Source: Eubacteriales bacterium
GTDB lineage: Bacteria; Bacillota; Clostridia; Oscillospirales; CAG-272
Assembly (NCBI GenBank): GCA_045126815.1
Contig: JBGVPD010000071.1
Coordinates: forward strand, 1 to 60,351
Reading direction: 5' to 3'
DNA: 60,351 nt
The notes beneath the pieces were generated by a model. It searched no databases, was not told the DNA's origin, and saw only the letters and a program-made list of their open reading frames with translations. Shown in pieces: positions 45,864 through 60,351 of the stretch (its first letter is position 1; every line of letters starts with the position of its first letter). The translations under genes and the position numbers were made by a program.

Positions 45864-48122
45864 TTAATTAAGTGGAAGTTCATACCCATTTTTTAAGAAA
45901 ATGATGTTTTTTGTGTTTGGGAGAGTGGTTTTATAGTGTTCAAAGATCTCTTTAGAGGGAAAAAACAGCGATACGTTATCCTTGAAAAAAAGACTTAAAC
46001 GGGCAGGATCACATTTTATACCGTACGTACCGAATATGTAATTATTTTGCGTATTAAAAAGTTTAGTAGCATATCCTTTTCCGTATACAGTTGAGTCAAA
46101 TCCGTAGCTGAAATAAACGTAAGAGCTGTTATTTGCAGAAAGGGTTACGGCTATTGAATCAGGCTTATATTCAGCACTTTTGGAAAGGTTTTCGACTTGT
46201 ATATCTACACCGTTGAAAGCTATTAAATTGTCGTATGGTACAATATCGATTTTGTATTCATTTGCGAGTGAAATGATTTGTTGTTTTATTACCTCATCAT
46301 ACTGTCCGTACGTTGTGGGGAGATATAAAGTTTCAATGTCGGTAACAGCCGATAAACGTTCGACCGACTTTAAATAGCGGTTGGTATAATCGGTTATAAT
46401 ATACCCGTTAAGTTGTGTTAGGTGATTGTTGTTAAGATGTAACTCAGCTAAAAGTGCATTTTGCGTATTTCCACCGGATATGTCTAAAAGAAGGGTTTTT
46501 CTGTTGCTTATTATTAGAAAAGATTGGCCTGAATATGATGTGGAATATATGGCTTTTTGTGTGTCTTTTGTGTTTGCAAAGTGGACATAAATACAAATAC
46601 TGAAAATCAGAATTGACACAATAAACGGAATGAAATAAACAGATTTATTTTTTGGATTTGTCAAAGAAATGATAAATAATGTAACTACCAAAAATATTAT
46701 AATATATTTAGAAAAACTGTAGTTTATTGATATGACAGGAGAAAAGTCGGAAAGTAGCTCTGCCAAAGTAAGCATAAGTTTAGCCGATAGATAGGGGATT
46801 AAAGATACCGAATGAGCTAGAGGTGGTATAAAGGAAAGACAGAGGAACACGGGGCAGGTGTACATAATAGCTAAGAGAAACGGTGTAAATAATATGTTTG
46901 AAATTGGAGAAAGAACAGCTATTTCACCGTAGGATATCCATATTGCAGGAATTGAGAATAAAACGGGGACGATGCCGAATAACAGCATAGACCATAGCTT
47001 TTTAAATGTTGTTTTAAGTAAAGAATGTTTTTCTTCGTTGTTTTGGTTATCAATAGATTTTTGTGTTACGGGAATGGCGACAGCCAATATTCCGTAGGTC
47101 GAAAGGAATGATAACCATAGACCTATATCAAAGACTGAGCATGGTGAGAAAAAGACGATCAACGCGACCGATGTGCAAAGCGAAGTTATTGAATCGTTGC
47201 TTTTTGAAATAAGGAAGGTAAGATAATAGATAATAAGCATTAAGGCTGCTCTTTTTACGGATGATGAAAATCCTGTCAGTCCTGCATAAGCAAATGTAAG
47301 AAAGATCATTAATACGTACTTTTTCTTTTTGTTTATGCTAAGTTTATCAATTATTAGGTCTAGGGTTGATATTAGAATTGAGAGATGAAGTCCGCTAACA
47401 GCGAGCATGTGGGATAGTCCCAGCTTTTGAAAATTGTATTTAGTGTGAGGGGAGAGTTTTGATTTGTTTCCCAATATTAACGCTTGTGATAAATTGTTTT
47501 CTTCACCTTTTATGTGTCTGTCGAATACCGAAGATAATGTGTTGTTAAGTTTGTCAAAGAAGTAGTTAGGGAATAATTTTACAAGAGTTTTATTATCGGT
47601 TATTTTATCTGTAACGTTTGCACTGATGAATATGCCGTTTGACAAGTTGGATATCCTGTTATCAGTTTCGTAGGTGTTGTTCTGGGAAAACATAACTTTT
47701 GCGCTGTATGAATAATAAAGCGGTGTATCAATGGTGCCTTGGAAAGTAATTGTTGCTTTAAAATTCGATCTATCATTATTTACAGAGGTTACTTTTACAG
47801 TGTATATAGAATAGGTATCGGAAACGTAATGTTCTTCTATGGGAATGAAATCAATGTAACATTCTTTGTCAACATAAGTTTGAATGTTGTTGTAGTTGAT
47901 GTCGAAATTTATTATAGAGATGAGTGAAGATATGAGTAATGGCGGAAGAACGAAAAATGTAACAAATTTGAAATTACGTTTTATTAAGAGAAATATGAAG
48001 AGAAGCAGAAAAAATGAAAAGAGAATTGTTTTGACTGTGAGACTAAAGTAGACAGAAATAAGTGTTGAGAAAAGAAAGAGACAACACGAGAAGGCAAAGG
48101 GACGAAGTTTCAAAGCTGTCAA
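45864..48122 (-). CDS. comEC: ComEC/Rec2 competence protein with degenerate metallo-beta-lactamase domain
   Basis: GLSHMLAVSGLH, S..RAA.M, G.WLSF.ST; TTG start after AAAGGAGG. Confidence 0.85.
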   Translation of the reverse strand: MTALKLRPFAFSCCLFLFSTLISVYFSLTVKTILFSFFLLLFIFLLIKRNFKFVTFFVLPPLLISSLISIINFDINYNNIQTYVDKECYIDFIPIEEHYVSDTYSIYTVKVTSVNNDRSNFKATITFQGTIDTPLYYSYSAKVMFSQNNTYETDNRISNLSNGIFISANVTDKITDNKTLVKLFPNYFFDKLNNTLSSVFDRHIKGEENNLSQALILGNKSKLSPHTKYNFQKLGLSHMLAVSGLHLSILISTLDLIIDKLSINKKKKYVLMIFLTFAYAGLTGFSSSVKRAALMLIIYYLTFLISKSNDSITSLCTSVALIVFFSPCSVFDIGLWLSFLSTYGILAVAIPVTQKSIDNQNNEEKHSLLKTTFKKLWSMLLFGIVPVLFSIPAIWISYGEIAVLSPISNILFTPFLLAIMYTCPVFLCLSFIPPLAHSVSLIPYLSAKLMLTLAELLSDFSPVISINYSFSKYIIIFLVVTLFIISLTNPKNKSVYFIPFIVSILIFSICIYVHFANTKDTQKAIYSTSYSGQSFLIISNRKTLLLDISGGNTQNALLAELHLNNNHLTQLNGYIITDYTNRYLKSVERLSAVTDIETLYLPTTYGQYDEVIKQQIISLANEYKIDIVPYDNLIAFNGVDIQVENLSKSAEYKPDSIAVTLSANNSSYVYFSYGFDSTVYGKGYATKLFNTQNNYIFGTYGIKCDPARLSLFFKDNVSLFFPSKEIFEHYKTTLPNTKNIIFLKNGYELPLN

Positions 48123-48332
48123 AGGGTAATCCTCCTTTCAAAAATTAGATTTATAAGAAGAATATACCATTTATATGAGTTTTTGTAAAGAGAATGGGCT
48201 ATAATAATGAGGGATAAAAAAGCGGGAGAGATAAGAATGTATTGTTAACAAAAAATTCATATTCTTTCTATTGCAAAACGAGAGAAAATGTGATATACTA
48301 CGTGAAGTTGAATAGAAAAAGAAGTTCACCGA

Positions 48333-48423
48333 GGAGAAGTACTCAAGTTGGTGAAGAGGCGCCCCTGCTAAGGGTGTAGGTCGGGTAACCGGCGCGAGAG
48401 TTCAAATCTCTCCTTCTCCGCCA
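48333..48423 (+). tRNA. tRNA-Ser(GCT)
   Basis: GGAGAAG/CTTCTCC acceptor stem, anticodon loop CT-GCT-AA, long variable arm, GTTCAAATC T-loop, encoded CCA. Confidence 0.97.
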
Positions 48424-48821
48424 AATAAGGAACAGTAGATTGATACAATCGTATCGACCTACTGTTTTCTTTTTATCGTTAAAAATTGACCGAAAGTCCT
48501 TGTAAATCAAGGGCTTTTTCTCTTTGGTGGTGCATTTCGCTATAAGCGGTGCCTATATCTTATGCCTCGGAAGCCTCAAAATTCAGAAAAGCACTACTCC
48601 CCGTCAAGGTGTAGTGCCTTCCTATCGTTAAAAGATTGGTATTCGTTAAATTACTGATTTAGCGTTCTGCCAAGTTCAATATAGGGCAACTAATCAATGT
48701 AAGGCTATTATCACCATTATTCTACCTAGGGGGGAGAGCACTCTTGCTGAAATTGATACAAGCAGCCTATCGTTGTCCCCCGATTGTGAAGAATTTTTAA
48801 TGCTTTTAAACTCACTTAGTA

Positions 48822-48849
48822 TTGAAAAAATAAAGAAATATGATATAAT
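48822..48849 (+). promoter_or_regulatory. SigA promoter for the peptide/HEPN unit
   Basis: TTGAAA-N16-TATAAT with TG extension. Confidence 0.65.
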
Positions 48850-48911
48850 ATATTTTGGTGATGACGGTAGATTAGGGGCGTTTGCCCACTTCTATCTAAG
48901 GAGGTAACCAT

Positions 48912-49022
48912 ATGAAGGTTAATCCAAGAACCGTCAAGTTTGTGTTGGAACTTGTTGTTGCAGTCGCATCTGCTGCAAGTGTGGTGGTAACCAAGTACTA
49001 TCTTGAATCCCCCCAGCCATAA
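48912..49022 (+). CDS. 36-aa hydrophobic peptide (not in ORF track)
   Basis: TAAGGAGGT RBS; MKVNPRTVKFVLELVVAVASAASVVVTKYYLESPQP*. Confidence 0.65.
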   Translation: MKVNPRTVKFVLELVVAVASAASVVVTKYYLESPQP

Positions 49023-49085
49023 CTCACCACGGGTACATTATCCTTTGGGAAGTGTGCCCGATTTGTTTATTAGGGAGGTCTATAA

Positions 49086-50747
49086 ATGGAAAGTGGTTTT
49101 AACTATAATATTCTGTTAAATCAAGCATTGGATAAAATTCGGAATATTAGAGATCCTCGCTCGCTACATCAAGAATATGTACTTTATGGGTTGAAAGAAA
49201 GCCAGAGTAATAGTGCAGTAAGTATTGGAGGAGAAGCTTTTGCAACGTATTCCGACATCGTTGAAAGCGCTCAAGCGGTAACCATTCAATGCTTAGAAAT
49301 GACAATATTCTATTTATTGCAGCACTATGGTTACGATGTCGAACGTGTTGATGCTTCTAAAATAAATAACGATGCTAATTTTGCCATTCTGGATAAAGCA
49401 AAGTCTACGCTCTTATTATTTAAGAAACCGTTTAATGACTTGGTTATTGCGGGACCTAATTGCGTTACTGATGATGAAGATAAAGCAAAAGAATGTTTTA
49501 ATGTTGAGAAATGTGTATGCGTTTTCTTGATGTATGATAGAGCACCCAAGCAGTTTATTCCGACTCTGGAATTAAACCAAATACTTGATAACTATGTTTT
49601 TTCATTAAAGACCCTGTTTGACCGCTATTTTAATGATGCGGAATTTGCGACCTTCCATAGGTGTTTTTCAAACTACACCAAATTCGTTAATAAGTATTTA
49701 GGATTTACAGTTGTAAAAAACTTAACACCCGTAGCACAAAGCAATTTTTCAAAAATTGTAAAGTATAGATTAGAACATTTTGACTATAAAAAACTACTGA
49801 CTATTGAGATGAATGGTAAAATCTTAATTGAGCCATCATACAATGAAATAGCAACGGAGTTCATAAAAAATAACAAGTATCTTATACTATTGGGTTCTCA
49901 AGATTTCGCAGAAAGTTTAATTACCGCAGAGTGGATGTATGACTCAATGAAAGAGGCTCAAGCAATAGATTTAACAATTATAGGAATGGGATATTTGAAA
50001 GCGGTGGAACAACTGATATATTCCATAGTTTTGCTTCATAAAAATGAGGGGCGAAATATTAAGAGTAATCAACGCGGAATATTGAACGTGTGCTTGGACG
50101 ATGAACACATCGATAATAATTCAATAGATTCTTCAATTGGTTCGTTGGCTAATTTCTGCAAAAACAACTTGGATATATTTAGTGGCAAAGTTCACTTCCA
50201 AGCAAAAAAATATGTTACAGAAACTATCTTCGCGTTTAAGGATATACGTAACGGTTATTTCCACAAGCACAATATTCACGATTGGTCAAAGATTGATGAA
50301 ATAAGAAATGTAACGTATTACTTGGCATTTTTATTATTGGGTGCGGCTGAGTTAACCGACAAGGACAAAGCCACGCTCGGCTTTCCCAATTGTGATTTTA
50401 TTAGCGATAAATACAAGTTATGCGAATACATAAATTATCACGATGACGATGCTTTCGTTCTTTGTTATGACAACGAAAAAGAAATTATAGCGATTGCCCA
50501 CCGTGACCTTAAGGCAAAAACCATAAACAACCTTTTCACACAGTATTCTGGAGCATATTTTTCGGAAATAGGAAGTCACACCATTATTGATATTTTTACG
50601 GATATGCCTAACGAAATCTATTTGTGTAGAATTGATTTTGAGCTTTCCGATGGAGTACAATTCAATCCGACAAAGGTTAAAAAAATCTTTGCATATGGTA
50701 AGTTTGTGGGACCTGACCCTTTTTCTGAAGATGGTACTCGATATTAA
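49086..50747 (+). CDS. 553-aa protein with a HEPN-like RxxxxH motif (putative RNase/Abi-type defence protein)
   Basis: GGAGG RBS; YLKAVEQLI helix and IRNGYFH (nt 50247-50264); AT-rich. Confidence 0.55.
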   Translation: MESGFNYNILLNQALDKIRNIRDPRSLHQEYVLYGLKESQSNSAVSIGGEAFATYSDIVESAQAVTIQCLEMTIFYLLQHYGYDVERVDASKINNDANFAILDKAKSTLLLFKKPFNDLVIAGPNCVTDDEDKAKECFNVEKCVCVFLMYDRAPKQFIPTLELNQILDNYVFSLKTLFDRYFNDAEFATFHRCFSNYTKFVNKYLGFTVVKNLTPVAQSNFSKIVKYRLEHFDYKKLLTIEMNGKILIEPSYNEIATEFIKNNKYLILLGSQDFAESLITAEWMYDSMKEAQAIDLTIIGMGYLKAVEQLIYSIVLLHKNEGRNIKSNQRGILNVCLDDEHIDNNSIDSSIGSLANFCKNNLDIFSGKVHFQAKKYVTETIFAFKDIRNGYFHKHNIHDWSKIDEIRNVTYYLAFLLLGAAELTDKDKATLGFPNCDFISDKYKLCEYINYHDDDAFVLCYDNEKEIIAIAHRDLKAKTINNLFTQYSGAYFSEIGSHTIIDIFTDMPNEIYLCRIDFELSDGVQFNPTKVKKIFAYGKFVGPDPFSEDGTRY

Positions 50748-50763
50748 AACATTAATTACTCAA

Positions 50764-50806
50764 ATACAGCCTACTTAGGTTTGTCCTAGTTAGGTTGTAT
50801 TTTTTG
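50764..50806. terminator. Terminator between convergent HEPN and recombinase genes
   Basis: ATACAGCCTA-CTTAGG..CCTAGT-TAGGTTGTAT followed by a T tract. Confidence 0.65.
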
Positions 50807-50866
50807 CTGATGCAAAGCATCTATTTAACGTTCTCTTATTATACAATCCGCAGGTGGCATAGCTCT

Positions 50867-52450
50867 CTACATCATCACCGTTTTCTCGCATCCGTTTCGA
50901 AAGGTGAATACAAGCCGTCCGTCATTGTGAACGGTGATGCGTTCAACGATTGCGTGAAAACGACCATCGCTCCATTCGGTATCCAGGCGATCAAGTTGGG
51001 ACAGTTCGAACAGAAATCCGCTGAGCACGTCGGCTTTAAATTTTCTTTCCTCCCGTTGCTGCGTAAGAGCTGTATAACGCTTCTGTAACCCTCTGTAACG
51101 TTCGGTCAGGCTTTCGTATGACTTAGTATATTCCTCTTGGTTAAGAGCCGTTATCGCATTGTCGGTAATGGCTTTTTCTATCATCTTTGTAACAATCTCA
51201 ATCTCTTCCGTGACCGATCTTATCTCGGCATCAATTTCAGTATGATCGGAAAGAGTTTTCTTTATAAGTCTTCCATCCTCAATTAAGGCTTCACGGTTTT
51301 CGATGAGAAAGCTCAATGCAATGATGGAATACTCCTTGAGTACATCTTCTGTAAAATGCGGTGTTGAGCATTTCTCCTCTCCCTTGAATTTATGATTGCA
51401 TTGCCATATAACACGGCGGTACTGATCGTTTGAGTGCCACACCTTGGGACCGAACCACTCTCCGCAATCCCCGCATATGACCTTCCCCGAGAAAGGACTA
51501 TTACAAGAAGTACGTTTCGGTGCGTTCTTACGTCGGCAGATCTCCCCCTGAACCATCTCCCACTCTGCCGGATCTATTATTGCAGGGTGGCTGTTCTCCA
51601 CGTAATACTGAGGAACCTCACCCTCATTGATTTTCATCTTTTTCGTTAAATAATCCGTTGTAAACTTCTTCTGAAGCCGTGCGTCCCCCTTGTATTTCTC
51701 GTTTGTAAGGATACTCTCCACGGTGCTCGTTTGCCACACCTTCTTTTTCCCCGGTGTGGGAACACCCTCGGTAGTAAGGTGTCTTGCAATGTAATTTGCG
51801 GATTTACCGTCGATAAACATTCGGTATATGCGCCGTACTATTTCGGCTTCATCCGGCACTATTTCGGGCAGACCGTTTGCTCCTTTTCTGTAACCGAGGA
51901 ATTGTTTATACGGCATGCTGACCTTGCCGTCGGCAAATCGCTTGCGTTGTCCCCAGGTCACGTTCTCGGAAATGGAACGGCTTTCTTCCTGGGCAAGGGA
52001 TGACATAATGGTTATGAGAAGCTCACCCTTGGAATCCATCGTCCATATATTTTCTTTTTCAAAGTACACCTCAACACCTTTGTCCTTGAGCTTACGGACG
52101 GTGGTAAGGCTGTCCACGGTATTACGGGCAAAGCGACTTACGCTCTTGGTTACGATGAGGTCGATTTTGCCGCTCAGAGCATCGGATACCATTCTGTTAA
52201 AGCCGTCACGCTTTTTTGTATTGAGGGCGGATATGCCTTCATCGGTATATACCTCAACAAATCCCCATTCGGGACGGCTTTTGATGTAATTGGTGTAGTA
52301 GTCCACCTGTGCCTCATAGCTTGTGAATTGTTCATCGCTGTCGGTGGACACACGTGCATATCCCGCTACCTTCCGTTTTGTTTTTGATGCTGTGGATATT
52401 CCCGTATGCAAATTTCGTGTGGCGGGTATTACGGTTACGTTCTTAGCCAT
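50867..52450 (-). CDS. Large serine recombinase (resolvase, recombinase and Zn-ribbon domains)
   Basis: YARVSTD, DEGIS, TKSVSRFARN, AQEESRSISEN, CGDCG, coiled coil. Confidence 0.95.
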   Translation of the reverse strand: MAKNVTVIPATRNLHTGISTASKTKRKVAGYARVSTDSDEQFTSYEAQVDYYTNYIKSRPEWGFVEVYTDEGISALNTKKRDGFNRMVSDALSGKIDLIVTKSVSRFARNTVDSLTTVRKLKDKGVEVYFEKENIWTMDSKGELLITIMSSLAQEESRSISENVTWGQRKRFADGKVSMPYKQFLGYRKGANGLPEIVPDEAEIVRRIYRMFIDGKSANYIARHLTTEGVPTPGKKKVWQTSTVESILTNEKYKGDARLQKKFTTDYLTKKMKINEGEVPQYYVENSHPAIIDPAEWEMVQGEICRRKNAPKRTSCNSPFSGKVICGDCGEWFGPKVWHSNDQYRRVIWQCNHKFKGEEKCSTPHFTEDVLKEYSIIALSFLIENREALIEDGRLIKKTLSDHTEIDAEIRSVTEEIEIVTKMIEKAITDNAITALNQEEYTKSYESLTERYRGLQKRYTALTQQREERKFKADVLSGFLFELSQLDRLDTEWSDGRFHAIVERITVHNDGRLVFTFRNGCEKTVMM

Positions 52451-53744
52451 TTTGTGTTCTCCTTTCCGAAGCCCTCTGCCTTGCTGCCTCTCTCATTTCA
52501 CCCGTCCAAACGTCGCTCCGAGAACGCGGCTTCCATCGTTTAACGGGTGTTTCTCCGCCTGCAAGGTGAAATATCAAAGCGTTTTCTTTTGTGGCTGTAA
52601 TTGCCGTTATCCTATCAAAAAACGCATTCGGCGTAAGTTCCGTAACACCGAGCACCTCAGATGCAAGCCTAAATAGCTCTTCCTCGGGGATTTGCTTTGA
52701 TGTGCACATCTCTTTGCCCTTCTCCTGATATAAAGCACAGTTCCAGGCTTTTCTGCCGTTGCTTGTAATACGCTTGTAATGTCTTCCGCAACTCTCACAA
52801 ACTATCATCCCGGAAAAGATGCTGCGCTCACAAGGAGTATGCTCGGATATACGGTGTGTGTTCCTTTGCAGGATCTCTCTGACGGCACAAAACAGTTCTT
52901 CATCAATGATACCTTCGTGAGTCCCCTCTGCATAATACATCGGAAGTTCTCCGGTATTGCGGAGTTCTTTTTTCTCCAAGTGGTTATTACGGTACTTCTT
53001 TTGCAAAAGGGCGTTACCGCAGTATTTTTCGTTTCCGAGCAAGGCAGCAATACGGCTAGCCTTCCATTTACCTCCGTTGGTACCCCTGATGCATCTGTTG
53101 TTGAGATCACGGGCAATGGCACCAAAGCTTTCTCCATCTGCTGCTCTTCGGAATATCTCTCGTACAATAGGTGCGGTAGCTTCATCAACCTCAAGGTTTC
53201 CTTTTACTACTCGGTAACCGAACATTCTGCGGACGTTCATTATCTTACCCTCTTGAAACTGCTTTCTGACCTTCCATTTCTGATTCTCACTTGCGGAGAG
53301 ACTTTCCTCCTGGGCATAGCTTGCAAGAATTGTAAGCATCAGTTCCCCGTCAGCACTTGCGGTGTGAATGCTCTGTTCCTCAAAATACACATCAACTCCC
53401 AGGCTCTTCAGTTCTCTAACAGTTTCAAGAAGAGTTATGGTGTTTCTCGCAAATCGCGATATGGACTTGGTTATGATCATATCCACCTTTCCGCTTCGGC
53501 AATCTGCGAGAAGCCTTTGAAAGTTTTCTCTGTTATCCTTTGTACCGCTCAAGGCTTCGTCCGTATATACTCCGGCATACTCCCAATCATTATGGCTTTG
53601 TATCATTTTGCTGTAATAGCTGACCTGTGCGGAGAGGGAGTGAAGCATGGCATCCTTACCTGTGGACACTCTCGCATATGCAGCTACACGCTTTTTCTTT
53701 GGTAACACTTCGGGAAAGTGTACTTGTTCGATTTTTCTTGCCAT
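52443..53744 (-). CDS. Second large serine recombinase
   Basis: YARVSTG, TKSISRFARN, AQEES.S.SEN, CESCG; overlaps the next recombinase by 8 nt. Confidence 0.95.
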   Translation of the reverse strand: MARKIEQVHFPEVLPKKKRVAAYARVSTGKDAMLHSLSAQVSYYSKMIQSHNDWEYAGVYTDEALSGTKDNRENFQRLLADCRSGKVDMIITKSISRFARNTITLLETVRELKSLGVDVYFEEQSIHTASADGELMLTILASYAQEESLSASENQKWKVRKQFQEGKIMNVRRMFGYRVVKGNLEVDEATAPIVREIFRRAADGESFGAIARDLNNRCIRGTNGGKWKASRIAALLGNEKYCGNALLQKKYRNNHLEKKELRNTGELPMYYAEGTHEGIIDEELFCAVREILQRNTHRISEHTPCERSIFSGMIVCESCGRHYKRITSNGRKAWNCALYQEKGKEMCTSKQIPEEELFRLASEVLGVTELTPNAFFDRITAITATKENALIFHLAGGETPVKRWKPRSRSDVWTGEMREAARQRASERRTQNG

Positions 53745-53803
53745 ATAACCTCCTGTGTATTACTTATAAGGTACTATATATATCACTCTAACCCCTCTGA
53801 AAG

Positions 53804-54031
53804 TCAAGCGATTTCAGAAAATAAACTACCCGAAGATAATCCGTACTTTTTGTTTAATACGTCAATAGCTTTCTTATAATCCGTGACCGTCAGAAGACCT
53901 TGCTTTACCATCCTTTCTACAAGTGCTGCGGAGGTGTGATAAAGAATAAGCCCGGACGGATCATACGGATTTCGCTCTGCGTGCTTTAAGGTAGCATTCC
54001 CGACTACAGTATTTACGACGGTTGTTTCCAT
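53804..54031 (-). CDS. Small SHOCT-like protein preceding the tandem recombinases
   Basis: MVKQGLLTVTDYKKAIDVLNKKY pattern typical of the small gene before LSR pairs. Confidence 0.65.
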   Translation of the reverse strand: METTVVNTVVGNATLKHAERNPYDPSGLILYHTSAALVERMVKQGLLTVTDYKKAIDVLNKKYGLSSGSLFSEIA

Positions 54032-54341
54032 AGCTCACAAACTCCTTTCCGCATTCCTCGCAAACGAGGCTGTAATATGCTTTTCGGTTTATGGATTCGG
54101 GATGAGAATTCCACCAAGCCATACGGCACTTATCCGAGCAGAACTTTTTCTCACGTCTTCCCGTGGGCTGCGATACAAATGCACCGCAAGTCATACAACG
54201 GCGGGTACCGGGGATATCGGGATGACGGCGGATATGCGAACGTACGGTATTGGGAGAAAGTTGTAGGATGAGGGCGATGTCACCTGCGGACTTGCCTTCC
54301 ATGCGAAGGTTATCGATTGCAATTTTATCTTGCGGTTTCAT
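53961..54341 (-). CDS. HTH plus Cys-rich zinc-ribbon protein
   Basis: IA..LQLSPNTVRSHIRR; CMTCG, FCSDKC, CEECG, YCSREC; AAAGGAGG RBS. Confidence 0.8.
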   Translation of the reverse strand: MKPQDKIAIDNLRMEGKSAGDIALILQLSPNTVRSHIRRHPDIPGTRRCMTCGAFVSQPTGRREKKFCSDKCRMAWWNSHPESINRKAYYSLVCEECGKEFVSYGNNRRKYCSRECYLKARRAKSV

Positions 54342-54402
54342 GTTTTATCCTCCTTTGTTTATTGGGAGAGCAACCGTAAAGGTTACTCCCCCGATTGTTG
54401 GT

Positions 54403-55410
54403 TTACGCCTTGACTTCAAGAACCTTTACGGCTTCGGGAAGAACGAGCTTGGCATCAATGCGCTCGGATGTGATGTAAGCAACCTGACCGTGATCGGCAT
54501 AACGTTCAACCAAACGCTTAATACTGCGCTTACCACGCTCACCGATCCAAAAGTGTGAGAAGTCACCGAAAAGGATAGGCTTTGCCCCGGCTTCTACCGA
54601 AGGAAGCTCGTTGGTTACGTATACGGGATAACCAAGGAGCGTGTCGGGCTCATCCTCGCTTAAGGAATTGATCCAAGCAGGCTTGCCGTCATAAAGACCA
54701 AGCTTCTTTAATCTCACCTCGGTGTCCTCGGAAAGAATGAATACGGCATTCTTGCGGTAAGGCTCCTTAACGGAATAAATGAGGTCGATGAGGTCATCAA
54801 AGCTCAGTGCATCGGCATCGTTTATTACCTTGCCCACCTCTGCCTGATGGATAATACCCACGGGTTTGCCGTTGCCGTCACCCGTAAAAAACGCCTCTTC
54901 CTCCGCCTTGGCTATGGAATAAACGAACATATGGCGGATGTATTCCTCAACATTGAAATTGGCGTCCTCCAAGAGCTCGTCCGAAACGAGAATGCGCTGT
55001 GCCAGCTTGTATGCCCCGAGCACAATCTCGCCAAAGGTTGTTTCGCTGATAGGTACGCTCTCACCCTCCGGAATCCAAACAGCAGAGCCCTCTTCTACAA
55101 CCTTGGGGATCTTCATTGTTTTAGTGGTCTTGATGACCGTAGCGAGTCTGCGGAGAAGGTTCTTGCGTGTCAAGCCCTCGACGAGCTTCTTCTCAAAGGT
55201 GTTCGGTACAAGGAAGCCACCCGAGCCGTCACTTCCTTTTTTGAGAGCGTTCTGAGGCATACCGGTGTGCATTACATCCCAAAATGCGGAGGCGTATGCT
55301 TCGTCAGATTTGAGCTCTGCTACGGTAGGATCACGCTTAATACCGAGCATTTCTTCTCTTAAAGCGTTGAGTTTTGAAAGATAATCATTGTAGTTTCTTT
55401 TGTTTTTCAT
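54403..55410 (-). CDS. HK97-family phage major capsid protein (solitary)
   Basis: GSDGSGGFLVP, W.PEG, VSDELLED, EEEAFFTGDG.GKP.G, LLGYPV, FGDFS, R.D.K....AVK. Confidence 0.9.
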   Translation of the reverse strand: MKNKRNYNDYLSKLNALREEMLGIKRDPTVAELKSDEAYASAFWDVMHTGMPQNALKKGSDGSGGFLVPNTFEKKLVEGLTRKNLLRRLATVIKTTKTMKIPKVVEEGSAVWIPEGESVPISETTFGEIVLGAYKLAQRILVSDELLEDANFNVEEYIRHMFVYSIAKAEEEAFFTGDGNGKPVGIIHQAEVGKVINDADALSFDDLIDLIYSVKEPYRKNAVFILSEDTEVRLKKLGLYDGKPAWINSLSEDEPDTLLGYPVYVTNELPSVEAGAKPILFGDFSHFWIGERGKRSIKRLVERYADHGQVAYITSERIDAKLVLPEAVKVLEVKA

Positions 55411-55444
55411 AATTGTTTCTCCTTGTATTTTGTTTGTTTTGGAT

Positions 55445-55545
55445 TTAGGGGTTAATACCCCATTTGTTTTTGTCTTTTTGTGCGTGAGGCCCCACGCCCG
55501 TTGTACGAGTGAAAGGCCCCGGAGATTTACATCCCCCTACCGGGT
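55445..55545 (-). other. GC-rich dyad region, candidate cos/packaging site
   Basis: Dyads GCGTG-AGGCCC-CACGC (55482-55497) and GGGG-TTAATA-CCCC (55448-55461), plus GTAGGGGGATGTAAATCTC on the minus strand, immediately upstream of the capsid gene. Confidence 0.4.
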
Positions 55546-55553
55546 ATGCACAC

Positions 55554-55733
55554 TTACCCCTTTTTGCTCGCTGTATTAACAAGCCATTCCTTATAAGCGT
55601 CAACGGGTATAAGAATTCGTGTACCGATGCGAATGGTCGGAAACCCATTTGATTTCACCAGCTCATAGGCTTTCGGCAAGCTTATTCCCATCTGTGCGGA
55701 CAGCTCTTGTACGCTGATTGTTGTCTTATCCAT
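55554..55733 (-). CDS. Excisionase-like HTH_17 protein, 59 aa (not in ORF track)
   Basis: GAAAGGAGGT RBS; MDKTTISVQELSAQMGISLPKAYELVKSNGFPTIRIGTRILIPVDAYKEWLVNTASKKG*. Confidence 0.85.
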   Translation of the reverse strand: MDKTTISVQELSAQMGISLPKAYELVKSNGFPTIRIGTRILIPVDAYKEWLVNTASKKG

Positions 55734-55830
55734 AAACTCACCTCCTTTCAGACAACAAAAAAGCCCATACGGATTTGGAGATCCGTAAAGGCTTTAGATA
55801 TTAAATTGAGCACAGGACTATTTTGTTGTC

Positions 55831-56135
55831 CATTATAATGATACCATATAACCGGCGTTTTGTTTGTTCCATTTGTTCCGATTTTACGATGTTTCATCAT
55901 ATGATACCATTTGTCATTATAATTATATCACACTATGGTTGTTTAATTTGTTTATTTTGTTGGAATTTTTCTCATTAAAATATTACGGGGTATAGTTTTG
56001 CTTTTTAGGAGTAAGAAGCTTTTATGGAGGAATGGTACGGTCGATTACTATATTTCGTCATATGATACCATTTGTCATTATAATTATATCACATTATGGT
56101 TGTTGCATTTGTTTACATTTGTTGCGTATTTTCTC
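55831..56135 (-). repeat. Three leftward promoter-like modules; two form an ~80-bp direct repeat (55892-55973, 56053-56135)
   Basis: Minus strand: AACAAA(T) short direct repeats, then TGTGATATAAT or TGGTATCAT, then TATAATG. Confidence 0.7.
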
Positions 56136-56254
56136 TTTTTTGAAAAATTGCGATGTATAAATTATGGTCTTTTTGAAAAATCGTGGGGAACGTGATGTTT
56201 TTGAGAAGTGCTGTAAAGTATCATATCATACCAGAGATGCTTTTATAGAGGAAT

Positions 56255-56647
56255 GGTGCGGTCGTTGATAGTCATATATAGAAACTCTCTATAGAGTAAA
56301 AAATTTAGTATAAGAGAAAGTTTAGTATATGACTATAGGAGACCGCAACATATAGATAAAAAAGGGATACAACACATGCAATAGTTATGGCGCCGGATGT
56401 CACAAACGATGTTTTATACGATATAAAAATCGTTTATGCATCAAAGGGGGTGAGGTCGACGATAGTCATATATAAAATTCTCTATAGAGCCAAAAAAATA
56501 AGTATAAGAGAAAGTTTAGTAAATGACTATTGGCGATCTCACCCCGCCATGTTGCAGTCAATGATGGTCATATATAAAACTTTTCTATAGAGTAAAAAAA
56601 TTAGTATAAGAAAAAGTTTAGTATATGACTATATGAGACCGCAACAT
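56255..56647. repeat. Three ~95-100 bp imperfect palindromic repeats (56255-56349, 56447-56545, 56549-56647)
   Basis: Shared core GTCATATATA(G/A)AA..TCTATAGAG..AAAAAA..AGTATAAGA.AAAGTTTAGTA.ATGACTAT with self-complementary outer arms. Confidence 0.9.
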
Positions 56648-56738
56648 ATCACCCAAAACAATGAAATCTTATGCCGAATTATTGATTTTTTCACGGAACT
56701 GTGATATGATATTGAATATACGATACGGAGGTGTCATT

Positions 56739-56963
56739 ATGGCTGTCAGTTATAAAAAACTTTTTCATATGATGATCGAGCAGGATGTGTCCAATGCACA
56801 ACTAATGCGTGAGGCAAACATATCTGCAAATATTATAACAAAACTAAAAAATGGTCAGTACATTGCCTTGGACAAGGTTGAAAGTATTTGCAATGCTATG
56901 AAATGTACACCGAATGACATATTGGAATTTGTACCGAATGCGGAGGGAACGAACAATGGCTGA
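56739..56963 (+). CDS. Cro/C1-type (HTH_26) regulator
   Basis: MAVSYKKLF...ICNAMKCTPNDILEF; GGAGGT RBS. Confidence 0.88.
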   Translation: MAVSYKKLFHMMIEQDVSNAQLMREANISANIITKLKNGQYIALDKVESICNAMKCTPNDILEFVPNAEGTNNG

Positions 56964-58533
56964 TATAAAGAGAGACCAGGAGCGGGACGAGTTATTCCGT
57001 ACCATATATAAAATAGCCACCGACCTGGTTCACGCAGGCCACGTAGCGGAATGGGATTTCAAGTCTTATGTTCTCGGTACAATGTTCTACCGCTATATCT
57101 CCGAGAATTTCACCGCTTACATAAATGCCGGTGAACACGCAGCCGGAAACACCGATTTTGATTATGCAAAAATGTCGGATGAGGATGCAGAGCCTGCCCG
57201 TGATGGACTTGTGCAGGAAAAAGGCTTCTTTATTCTGCCCTCTGAACTGTTCTGCAACGTACGCGTCCGTGCCGACAAGGATGAAAACCTCAATGAGACC
57301 TTGGAACGTGTATTTGCCCATATTGAGAGTAGTGCCGCCAGCGGTGATGCTGAGAGTGACTTTGCCGGTCTTTTTGATGATTTTGACGTTAATGCAAAAG
57401 CTATCGGTGAGACCGTTGCCAAGAGAAATAAAGTTCTTGCGGAATTGCTCCACGGTGTTGCCAGAATGCCTCTGTTTTCTACCGAAGGCATCAACCCCGA
57501 TCTGTTCGGTGATGCCTATGAATATCTAATGGGTATGTATGCCGCCAACGCAGGAAAAAAAGGTGGTCAGTATTTTACCCCGGCAGATGTATCCGAACTG
57601 CTTGCCCGTCTCGGCACCATCGGTAAAACACGCATCAACAAAGTATATGACCCCGCCTGTGGTTCCGGTTCGCTTCTGCTCAAGGTAGAAAAAGTTCTCG
57701 GCAAGGATAATATCGAGCGTGGTTTTTACGGTCAGGAGATCGACCTTACCACCTATAACCTTTGCCGTATCAATATGTTCCTCCATAACATTGAATTCGA
57801 TAAGTTCAATATCGTTCGTGAGGACACCCTGCTCACTCCTATGCATTGGGATGACCAGCCCTTTGAACTGATCGTTTCCAATCCACCTTTCTCCGTTCCG
57901 TGGGAAGGGGATAAGAATCCTCTCCTTATTAACGATCCTCGCTTCTCTCCGGCAGGTGTTCTTGCTCCTGCATCCAAGGGAGATATGGCTTTTATTATGC
58001 ACAGCCTTTCCTGGCTTGCCAATAACGGTGCTGCCGCTATCGTTTGTTTCCCCGGTATTATGTACCGTAGCGGTGCGGAGCAGAAGATCCGAAAATACCT
58101 GGTTGATAACAACTATGTGGATGCCATCATTCAGTTACCGTCCAATCTGTTCCTCAACGTCACAATTTCCGTTGACATTATGCTCCTGCGCAAAAACAAG
58201 ATCGACAACTCCATCCTTTTTGTAGACGCGTCCGGTGAGTTTGTCAAGGTAACAAAAAACAACCGTCTTTCCGAAGAGAATATCAGCCGCATCGTTTCCG
58301 CTGTTGCCGAAAGAAAGGATGTGGAGCATTTCTGCACCCTCGTATCGAATGATGTGGTCGGCAGCAAGGAGAATACCTATAACCTTTCTGTTTCCACTTA
58401 TGTAGAGGCAGAGGATACTCGTGAGAAAATCGATATCGTTCAACTGAATGCTGAAATCGCGGAGATCGTGGCTCGTGAGCAGGTTCTCCGTTCGGAGATT
58501 GATAAGATTATTGCGGAGATTGAAGGAGAATAA
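56956..58533 (+). CDS. hsdM: Type I R-M methyltransferase subunit M
   Basis: GQYFTP, YDPACGSGSLL, SNPPF (m6A), FPGIMYR. Confidence 0.96.
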   Translation: MADIKRDQERDELFRTIYKIATDLVHAGHVAEWDFKSYVLGTMFYRYISENFTAYINAGEHAAGNTDFDYAKMSDEDAEPARDGLVQEKGFFILPSELFCNVRVRADKDENLNETLERVFAHIESSAASGDAESDFAGLFDDFDVNAKAIGETVAKRNKVLAELLHGVARMPLFSTEGINPDLFGDAYEYLMGMYAANAGKKGGQYFTPADVSELLARLGTIGKTRINKVYDPACGSGSLLLKVEKVLGKDNIERGFYGQEIDLTTYNLCRINMFLHNIEFDKFNIVREDTLLTPMHWDDQPFELIVSNPPFSVPWEGDKNPLLINDPRFSPAGVLAPASKGDMAFIMHSLSWLANNGAAAIVCFPGIMYRSGAEQKIRKYLVDNNYVDAIIQLPSNLFLNVTISVDIMLLRKNKIDNSILFVDASGEFVKVTKNNRLSEENISRIVSAVAERKDVEHFCTLVSNDVVGSKENTYNLSVSTYVEAEDTREKIDIVQLNAEIAEIVAREQVLRSEIDKIIAEIEGE

Positions 58534-58534
58534 T

Positions 58535-59317
58535 ATGCCCCTTGTTCTAAAAAATCATACGGGAAATTTGTCGATATTAAAACACAATACACTCCCTATG
58601 ATAAAAACCGGAGAATTTGATTTTTATCGATGCATACAGTTTAGCGAGAACTTGTACGGAAAAACCGTCAGTGAATTGCATGCAGGGAATTTGCGTTTAA
58701 GCCGATCTGATAATCGTTATTCCAACTTGTTTCCCGGGCAGAAACTTTCATATTGGGCTGACAGTCCCAACACTGCGATGGCAGAAGCGAGAAAATGGGG
58801 AGCAAATAAGAATCTGCTGACTTTCTGGGCTTATGATGATGGAAGTAGTTTTATACCAACCGTATACCCGCCACTGGAACTGCAGATTATTGACGGAACA
58901 CAACTTGAGTTCAACAAAATACTAAAAAAGCTTGAAAAGCATGAGAGTTTAACAAAAGCAGATCGGGAGTTAATAGATGATATAGCATGTCAAGAACCCG
59001 ATTGTCTTGCGTATGAATCGGAAGCTCAAAAAGGTGGTACAAACTTCTTGTTTTTTGAACATGGATTCAAGAAGTTATCCATTAGAGAAGTTTGGCTAAG
59101 ACTGGGAGAACGTGTTGGACAAAATCATAACAAAATCGTTTGTGCTACTTCAAGCGATTATACGCCGCATCTTTCTTCTTACGGCAATATGTTTTTGCCC
59201 ATTGCGAGAATAGGCAATAGTTCTACATATACCGATTCAGATGAATATCACTTAAGGATGCAAGTGGTGATTGATAAGGCTGAGAGATTAGTAGGTGAAT
59301 ATAGTGACAAAACTTGA
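58535..59317 (+). CDS. RES-domain protein inserted between hsdM and hsdS
   Basis: FYRC; NRYS..SYWADSPNTAMAE; LAYES..GGTNFLFF match the R-E-S pattern; starts 1 nt after the hsdM stop. Confidence 0.65.
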   Translation: MPLVLKNHTGNLSILKHNTLPMIKTGEFDFYRCIQFSENLYGKTVSELHAGNLRLSRSDNRYSNLFPGQKLSYWADSPNTAMAEARKWGANKNLLTFWAYDDGSSFIPTVYPPLELQIIDGTQLEFNKILKKLEKHESLTKADRELIDDIACQEPDCLAYESEAQKGGTNFLFFEHGFKKLSIREVWLRLGERVGQNHNKIVCATSSDYTPHLSSYGNMFLPIARIGNSSTYTDSDEYHLRMQVVIDKAERLVGEYSDKT

Positions 59318-60351
59318 ACAACTGATAAACGAACTCTGCCCAAACGGAGTGGAACACGTTACATTAGGTTCTGTTTGTGAAATTGGCAAAGGTGTACAAT
59401 TTAATAAAGTTGATATGAATGATGAGGGAACGTATCCAGTAATCAATGGAGGCATTAACCCATCAGGATATATTGAACAATATAATCAAGTCGAAAACAC
59501 GATTACTATTTCACAGGGCGGTGCATCCGCTGGATATGTAAATTGGTTGACGGTAAAATTTTGGGCTGGAGCTCATTGTTATATTGTTAAACCGAGCTAT
59601 AAACTTCTCAACAGATACGCCTACCACTTCATTAAGTCTCAAGAATATAAACTTCAAGAATGTCAATACGGAGCTGGCATCCCAGCTTTGGCAAAATCAA
59701 CAGTTGCCGATTTATTAATCCCCGTACCTCCCCTTGAAGTACAGCGTGAAATTGTTCGTATACTGGACAATTTCACGGAGCTTACAGCGGAGCTTACAGC
59801 GGAGCTTACAGCGAGAAAAGATCAATATGCCTATTATCAAAATCTCCTGCTGTCACGCTCTGTCGGAGAAGAACATACTCTTTCCGATTGCTGTGTATCC
59901 ATAGCAGACGGCGACCATCAGCCCCCTCCTAAAGCTGATGAGGGAGTTCCGTTTATCACAATCTCCAATTTATCAGGAAACGGCATTGATTTCACAGATA
60001 CCAAATTCGTGCCACAGGAATATTACGATAGTCTTGATGACAAGCGACGTGCAAAAAAAGATGATATCTTATACTCCGTGGTTGGAACTTTCGGTATCCC
60101 TGTCCATATCACAGAGGACAAGCCGTTCATTTTCCAGCGGCATATTGCAATCCTGCGCCCCAATACAGAGATGATTGCACCACGATATTTATACCATGTA
60201 ATGAAAAGCGATGCCTTTTACAAAAAGGCCGATGCCGCCGCAATAGGCGCAGCACAGCGTACCATCAGCCTGACCGCGCTGAATCGCATGAAAATCACCG
60301 TGCCGAGTATGGATGTTCAAGAACGCCTTGTCCGTGTCCTCGACAACTTCG
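59304..60351 (+). CDS. hsdS: Type IC R-M specificity subunit S (3' truncated)
   Basis: GTG start, TKLEQLINELCPNGVE; IPVPPLEVQREIVRILDNFTELTAELTAELTARK.QY; second TRD runs to the window end. Confidence 0.92.
   Translation, partial: MTKLEQLINELCPNGVEHVTLGSVCEIGKGVQFNKVDMNDEGTYPVINGGINPSGYIEQYNQVENTITISQGGASAGYVNWLTVKFWAGAHCYIVKPSYKLLNRYAYHFIKSQEYKLQECQYGAGIPALAKSTVADLLIPVPPLEVQREIVRILDNFTELTAELTAELTARKDQYAYYQNLLLSRSVGEEHTLSDCCVSIADGDHQPPPKADEGVPFITISNLSGNGIDFTDTKFVPQEYYDSLDDKRRAKKDDILYSVVGTFGIPVHITEDKPFIFQRHIAILRPNTEMIAPRYLYHVMKSDAFYKKADAAAIGAAQRTISLTALNRMKITVPSMDVQERLVRVLDNF
59777..59812 (+). repeat. 3 x 12-bp GGAGCTTACAGC (TAEL spacer repeat)
   Basis: Three perfect tandem copies in the hsdS central conserved region. 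Confidence 0.95.

Follow-up and report, generated by a model that had tools for sequence, protein, structure and literature searches.

What turns on the genes of an integrated element whose operon combines an excisionase, a capsid homologue and two recombinases? The question is raised by a gene-free stretch of the window, by which we mean the whole 60,351 nucleotides of DNA that were analysed. Positions 55734-56660 on the minus strand form 927 nt without genes, and a stack of promoter modules is located there. This intergenic region is present as a single copy in its own genome and is flanked by the minus-strand operon and by a divergent XRE-type gene with a type I restriction-modification (R-M) cluster (56661 onward, plus strand). 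The initial annotation described three late-promoter-like modules on the minus strand, with direct repeats replacing the -35 box of an extended -10, and all three sequences that it quoted were found where it had placed them.

Promoter modules and leader hairpin

The stack and its leader consist of the following features.

56151-56200, minus strand: decayed module, aligning with the TGTCAC-box module M0 of the related loci L002 and L041; boxes and -10 degenerate
56076-56125, minus strand: module A; boxes GCAACAAAT, GTAAACAAAT and GCAACAAC at 56125-56099, doubled extended -10 TGATATAATTATAATG at 56091-56076
55915-55963, minus strand: module B; boxes CCAACAAAAT, AAACAAATT and AAACAAC at 55963-55938, doubled -10 TGATATAATTATAATG at 55930-55915
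55831-55879, minus strand: module C; boxes GGAACAAAT, GGAACAAAC and AAAAC at 55879-55857, -10 doublet TGGTATCATTATAATG at 55846-55831
55751-55830, minus strand: leader of the last module; hairpin at 55794-55761, U-tract at 55760-55755

Two or three phased direct-repeat boxes, spaced by 9-10 nt, precede a doubled extended -10 in modules A, B and C alike, which bears out the architecture first described for them. A degenerate box is flanked by two identical boxes with 19-22 nt between them, and the start of the proximal box is 15-24 nt upstream from the TG, in the -35 area. The doubled -10 core, which has no mismatches in modules A and B and two in module C, was matched three times in the window where 0.19 matches were expected, and a count of three was reached in none of 100 shuffles. 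The combined pattern of boxes and -10 was observed in the window at these three sites only (0.00 expected), although this is a post hoc test, as the pattern was built from the same three sites. Throughout the genome the core occurs with at most two mismatches at 16 sites and the repeat boxes accompany it at these three only; ordinary promoters with a -35 resembling TTGACA are, judged by eye, among the other 13. A sigma-70 consensus scan flagged module B alone, through a weak -35 (TAAACA-18-TATAAT), and a normal -35 is therefore missing from the modules. Since the extended -10 is host-like and module B has this weak -35, transcription independent of an activator is possible to some degree. Modules A and B also contain an additional -10-like sequence, TGGTATCAT, a few nucleotides downstream of the expected start.

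All three modules belong to one 38-nt repeat family. Modules A and B form a 71-nt duplication with 92% identity, and module B is a recent paralogue of module A. In addition, a 30-nt repeat with 90% identity (56014-56043 and 56235-56264) places a copy of the end of a palindromic unit, described below, between modules A and B, and the region has therefore grown by segmental duplication.

The hairpin that had been noted after the modules (55760-55796) was confirmed and found to be conserved. A consensus scan located it at 55787-55768, and the full stem extends over 55794-55761 and is followed directly by the U-tract. The leader has a minimum free energy of -26.6 kcal/mol (z = -3.4), and compensatory changes were observed in 5 of its 20 pairs among six aligned leaders. 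Its 5' segment (55830-55821) is able to pair with the U-tract region (55760-55751). Because the U-tract ends 9 nt from the ribosome site of the first gene, xis, there is no space for a further promoter between the hairpin and xis, and all transcription of the operon must therefore cross the hairpin. A 50-codon frame at 55900-55748 was considered as a leader peptide and rejected, as it has no ribosome site and meets a stop after 25 codons in L002. In the related locus L091, two modules of one stack (2243-2318 and 2434-2516) each have their own copy of the leader hairpin behind them; short RNAs may therefore end within that stack.

The operon and its element

The modules face an operon that ends at 50867, and the palindromic units lie upstream of them. 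These features are as follows.

56253-56649, minus strand: three 100-nt palindromic units (56649-56549, 56547-56447 and 56353-56253)
55554-55733, minus strand: xis, 59 aa, HTH_17/excisionase family, the first gene past the hairpin
55447-55540, minus strand: conserved non-coding motif between xis and the capsid gene, candidate cos site
54403-55410, minus strand: homologue of HK97-family major capsid proteins, 335 aa, the sole virion gene seen
53961-54341, minus strand: HTH/Zn-ribbon protein with a sigma70_r4-like HTH and two Zn-ribbons, PHROG 2308
53804-54031, minus strand: small SHOCT_2 protein
50867-53744, minus strand: two large serine recombinases (53744-52443 and 52450-50867)

The order of the operon is thus xis, cos-like motif, capsid gene, HTH/Zn-ribbon gene, SHOCT_2 gene and the two recombinase genes. 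The HTH/Zn-ribbon protein is the marker gene of this element family. The capsid homologue is predicted by analogy to have a role like that of Ccm, and its N-terminal residues (about 35) do not align to prophage capsids. A primase was not seen among the genes of the window, and as the contig stops at 60351, part of the element may be missing. An Rfam E-value scan of 47000-60351 returned only a tRNA and one sub-threshold miRNA match.

In phages of this kind the usual order is HNH, cos and terS. The motif next to xis was found in phages between the HNH and terS genes, and xis itself occupies the slot that is held by HNH in the phages. We counted 13 distinct contexts among the loci in which the motif is conserved; it matches 12 phage records and occurs once in the host genome, where Rfam finds nothing at its position. 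Its core falls into two or three variants; the core of the window resembles that of Streptococcus phage Javan105, and those of the phage contig L256 and the Acutalibacteraceae phage NatCom_991 differ. We argue that the motif is a DNA site rather than an RNA helix because its CGTG/CACG changes are not compensatory.

The palindromic units match intergenic DNA that lies right after the primase/helicase genes of NatCom_17901 and of Streptococcus phages Javan320 and Javan269. In these units the outer arms covary around a fixed asymmetric core, and the arms differ among units of one element. Similar palindromes were observed at L002 2792-3078 and L091 1452-1690. Because of their location just after the primase/helicase gene in phages, the units are candidate copies of a replication origin, which may be served by the replication proteins of a helper. 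The palindromes, the motif and the decayed module had not been noted in the initial annotation. Overall, the element looks like a minimal cos-type satellite that brings together ori-like palindromes, a late-promoter stack, xis, a cos-like motif, a Ccm-like capsid and two serine recombinases.

Other observations concern the surroundings of the element. On the plus strand, a cluster that reaches the contig end (56661-60351) encodes an XRE-type HTH protein, HsdM, a protein of 289 aa that matches the RES domain weakly, and HsdS; an HsdS-like gene is also present beside the stack of L002. The element may carry this type I R-M system as cargo, and the far boundary of the element would then lie outside the window. 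The interval from comEC to the end of the element that bears the recombinases contains a tRNA-Ser(GCT) gene (48333-48423) and a 553-aa open reading frame (49086-50747) without a Pfam or NCBIfam match. The G+C content climbs from about 0.35 to 0.45-0.50 near 50800.

Phage late control regions, related elements and helper range

A search of the phage collection with the stack itself gave no match, and the link to phages was made only via the motif adjoining xis. In Javan105 and NatCom_991 this motif is part of a region with the order regulator gene, boxes, doubled -10, hairpin, HNH, motif and terS. The regulator has 141-166 aa, contains DUF1492 and Sigma70_r4 and belongs to PHROG 36 ('transcriptional regulator'). 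The direct repeats begin at or before its stop codon, the hairpin with its T-tract is followed by a ribosome site and the HNH endonuclease gene, and terS belongs to PHROG 83. The same plan was observed in 46 viral loci that contain the motif core and, when the HNH start was taken as the anchor, in 74 distinct regions. Of 72 phage promoters, 54 contain a 6-mer that recurs exactly at a distance of 9-12 or 18-23 nt (mean of 6.7 and maximum of 14 in shuffles), and in 67 of the 72 an open reading frame ends just upstream of the promoter. We scanned 42 of these 67 frames, near-duplicates and extended-frame copies of listed sequences having been removed by hand; 33 matched DUF1492 at E <= 0.01, 23 of them at or above the curated cut-off. 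With a profile built from 14 proteins of these upstream frames, matches to sigma factors of solved structure were obtained in region 4 (best E = 2e-4). The initial annotation had likened the modules to late promoters that follow RinA- or ArpU-like genes, and the same architecture is indeed present in phages after genes of the DUF1492/sigma-region-4 type, to whose control regions the modules of the window are homologous.

The hairpin belongs to this plan. Scored in the same way as in the window, a hairpin with a T-tract was found in 80 of 84 distinct phage regions upstream of HNH, the likeness of the phage hairpins to that of the window being judged by eye. By this comparison the phage late control region includes the hairpin as a conserved component, a point that the initial annotation had missed.

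DUF1492 (LtrB) is one of the members of the Ltr superfamily, together with RinA, sigma70_r4/LtrA, LtrC and ArpU (Quiles-Puchalt et al. 2013, PMC3753634). In the parts of that study drawn on here, 7-nt direct repeats right after the ltr gene were required for terS transcription in a cognate-specific manner, as demonstrated experimentally for RinA, LtrC and ArpU. Among the phages compared by us, the box words vary by phage type and, judged by eye, track the sequence of the recognition helix of the activator. The loci L639-L718 and L195-L240 contain at least 15 box words (ATGAGAG, TTGGCAC, AAGCCAC, TGATACC, TGTCAG, AATTCCC and others), each with its own Ltr recognition helix, and could be used directly to derive a DNA-recognition code for DUF1492 activators. 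We also noticed that in L224, a viral contig of phage size (37 kb), two late-promoter modules with AATGCA/AATGCCA boxes stand in tandem, and stacks therefore occur outside satellites too.

The repeats lie directly distal to an ltr gene in the related phages, whereas the window holds the promoter without such a gene. The host genome, which is 99.4% complete in 95 contigs, has no DUF1492 match, and tblastn of this genome with three phage Ltr proteins, HNH, TerS and the DUF3987 primase-helicase gave no match either. The HTH/Zn-ribbon protein of the element aligned with the Ltr profile over a 23-column HTH only, at a probability of 18%, and by this comparison is not an Ltr. The remark that no activator is recognisable here consequently holds for the whole genome, from which Ltr is absent.

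Relatives of the element were sought with two of its proteins. With the capsid as query, a scan of genome contigs gave three loci, and a class-wide search gave matches in 41 of 399 scored genomes, mostly ordinary prophages; other genes of the element were beside the capsid match in none of 29 fetched loci. With the HTH/Zn-ribbon protein as query, we fetched loci from 80 of 322 viral and 80 of 422 metagenome confirmed stretches. Stacks with doubled -10 elements were observed in the same place in L035-37 (capsid 96% identical), L002, L041 and L091, with five modules in L002 and L041 and four or five in L091, where the stack is kept though the capsid is only 32% identical. L003 has one module visible at the contig edge, and of the 44 loci whose upstream DNA was long enough, most showed no doubled -10 core. 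The modules are syntenic in an alignment of the window, L035, L002 and L041. Their outer boxes change together: in the orthologue of module A in L002 and L041, both outer boxes read GCACCAA where the window has GCAACAA, a concerted change. In L004 (395-480), two direct TTGTCGCA boxes and two inverted copies surround about 50 nt of AT-rich DNA after a primase-like gene; this arrangement differs from that of a promoter module and is suggestive of an origin of SaPI type or of a long hairpin.

The extent to which individual modules match phages was observed to differ. From the boxes to the ribosome site, module C and the L256 late promoter are colinear, and over the 46 nt of the box region the two share 63% identity in register, where shuffles reached 53% at most. 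The box and doubled -10 pattern of module C was found at six loci among 2.9 million viral contigs (IMG/VR), namely three contigs of one phage type (L256, L758 and L759), each with Ltr, HNH and terS, and three satellite contigs of the window type. With modules A and B, no phage identity was higher than 0.50, whereas shuffles reached up to 0.65 and 0.58, respectively. Two viral scans for phages with A- or B-type boxes (80 loci fetched in each) gave, among the matches listed, one site that passed the filter, and this was coding. In 401 genomes the A- or B-type box pattern had matches in 37, control counts being of similar size. Two look-alike matches to A- or B-type boxes proved on reading to be unrelated. 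In total, 5 of 14 satellite modules exceeded their own shuffled maxima: module C of the window, M4 of L002 and three of the five in L091, the last three matching the TGATACC and ATGAGAG phage types.

The proposal that three variants widen the helper range has to be divided accordingly. In the window it is weak, for module C alone has a phage match and all three modules use the AACAAA box family, because of which we regard them as variants of one specificity rather than three. It is clearer in the relatives L002, L041 and L091, where box diversity is real and four or five unlike modules are present; such tandem arrays suggest a simple route to a wider helper range. Of the initial reading as a whole, Ltr-type late promoters and the lack of an activator are upheld, and the case for three variants in this window is weak. 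Furthermore, the L256-type phage, which shares the boxes of module C, carries a different variant of the cos-like core from that of the window, and it may therefore not be a complete helper, as promoter type and packaging type do not coincide in the one phage found.

Regulation of the operon and comparison with known systems

We consider it likely that the stack represents captured Ltr-type late promoters of helper phages, of cos type and from Clostridia and streptococci, which drive the excision and capsid operon of a satellite. The element is probably switched on by the late-gene activator of the infecting helper itself. The boxes would be the binding sites of this helper-encoded protein of the Ltr superfamily, with DUF1492 and a sigma-region-4-like C-terminus, and the doubled extended -10 would be read by the host RNA polymerase. 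With no activator encoded by the element, its operon would probably remain low until a helper phage with a cognate Ltr enters its late stage. Transcripts would then read through the leader hairpin to reach xis and the downstream genes. If these genes have their predicted roles, the element would next be excised, capsids would be remodelled and packaging would start from the cos-like site.

The hairpin past the -10 is not explained by the published Ltr model in the parts drawn on here, and it is near-universal in the related phages compared. An antitermination mechanism would give it a function: strong constitutive extended -10 promoters would produce short RNAs up to the hairpin, and helper Ltr bound to the boxes would load onto the polymerase and enable it to ignore terminators, much as Q of lambda acts at PR'-tR'. 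Compared with activation by Ltr, the mechanism alone would change, the helper-sensing logic being equal. It would account for the hairpin and T-tract after the -10 in 80 of the 84 phage regions, with no room for a later promoter, and for a -10 that equals the host consensus; the order regulator, promoter, terminator and late genes mirrors that of Q, PR' and tR', and the downstream TGGTATCAT of modules A and B could serve as a sigma-dependent pause site. This sequence, however, was not seen downstream of the start in phage promoters, and the DUF1492 family with its sigma-region-4-like C-terminus is unrelated to Q. Moreover, according to the consulted parts of PMC3753634, Ltr proteins are activators and a reporter is not expressed at all without their repeats, and we therefore judge antitermination as the sole mechanism unlikely. 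That the promoters are ordinary constitutive sigma-A promoters, their boxes being functionless relics of captured phage DNA and the hairpin damping the operon, is less likely still. The match of the extended -10 to host promoters, the partial -35 of module B, the proof of erosion given by the decayed module and the lack of a phage match for modules A and B agree with it, but neutral decay would not keep outer boxes identical within a module while they differ between modules and orthologues, and the spacing between box and -10 has stayed in register with the phage. Constant expression of excisionase and recombinases would, in addition, be expected to destabilise the element.

Two further explanations give the boxes other functions. 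Autoregulation, with the boxes as sites for Xis or the HTH/Zn-ribbon protein, draws on the presence of an HTH in both proteins and on the layout box, degenerate box, box, which recalls the head-to-tail lambda Xis sites X1-X1.5-X2. We find it highly improbable, as the same architecture occurs in phages that have HNH instead of xis and no HTH/Zn-ribbon gene nearby, modules are present in L091 and L003 without an xis match, and Xis is 95-100% identical between elements that differ in their module boxes. Hardly any weight is given to the boxes being iterons of a replication origin with the AT-rich doublet as the unwinding element. Phased short repeats beside AT-rich DNA are typical of satellite origins, and L004 has its two inverted repeat sets after a primase-like gene; the phage boxes, however, sit between ltr and HNH/terS, outside the replication module, and the 100-nt palindromes, which follow primase/helicase genes in phages, are a better origin candidate upstream.

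A wider reading, which we hold only tentatively and think rather less probable than not, joins these features. In it, a family of minimal satellites would mimic three control sites of its helpers in cis, namely ori-like palindromes, a captured promoter array that acts as an OR gate and a cos-like site, and DUF1492 activators would act partly by antitermination. Each module of the gate would carry boxes for the Ltr of a different helper lineage, so that any of several phages could wake the satellite. If this is true, the link between satellite and helper could be read from DNA, the boxes pointing to the late activator, the motif to the packaging type and the palindromes to the replication type. 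Such a means would be of use in gut Clostridia, which are hard to culture and in which helper-satellite pairs are almost unknown. The hairpin between the promoter and the first late gene also makes the mechanism of Ltr, initiation or read-through, directly testable. We found no paper that describes satellites with Ltr-type or stacked late promoters, or this element family, which does not prove that there is none.

The late control of lambda consists of the Q gene, PR' with the DNA site of Q, the promoter-proximal terminator tR' and the late genes. The phage regions described here resemble it in having a regulator gene, a promoter with its site, a terminator-like hairpin and late genes in this order, but their regulators are DUF1492/sigma-region-4-like and not of the Q family. 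In satellite P4, the late promoters Psid and PLL are activated by Ogr of the helper P2. The proposed likeness to the window is that a satellite morphogenesis operon carries a site for the late activator of its helper, whose late stage turns the satellite on. In contrast, Ogr is an unrelated zinc finger that acts on an inverted repeat, P4 encodes an activator of its own, Delta, and it has no tandem promoter array.

The Ltr-dependent terS promoters are similar to the window in that short direct repeats precede the target operon, and their activator has a sigma-region-4-like C-terminus (PMC3753634). Their cognate-specific repeats start right after the activator gene, whereas the window has no activator gene in cis. 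The promoters of the window are also tandem, and their target is xis, the capsid homologue and the recombinases rather than terS. Its hairpin follows the -10, whereas the terminator reported for staphylococcal phages, in the parts of that study drawn on, sits before the terS promoter (PMC3753634).

Finally, the cos-type SaPIs have a cos site copied from a phage and encode Ccm, a homologue of HK97-fold capsid proteins in which the delta domain is shorter, as described in the consulted parts of Carpena et al. (2016, PMC5052747). The element of the window is like SaPIbov4/5 in being integrated, in having no TerS relative found in its genome, in a phage-shared sequence at the cos position and in a single HK97-fold capsid homologue. 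It differs in having two large serine recombinases and an HTH_17 Xis instead of a tyrosine integrase, in the absence from the window of a visible Stl-type repressor or pri-rep gene, and in its Clostridia host; capsid redirection and cos cleavage are here predicted. On this reading the element combines parts of known kinds, namely Ltr late promoters, the organisation of cos satellites with Ccm and a P4-like sensing of the late stage of the helper.
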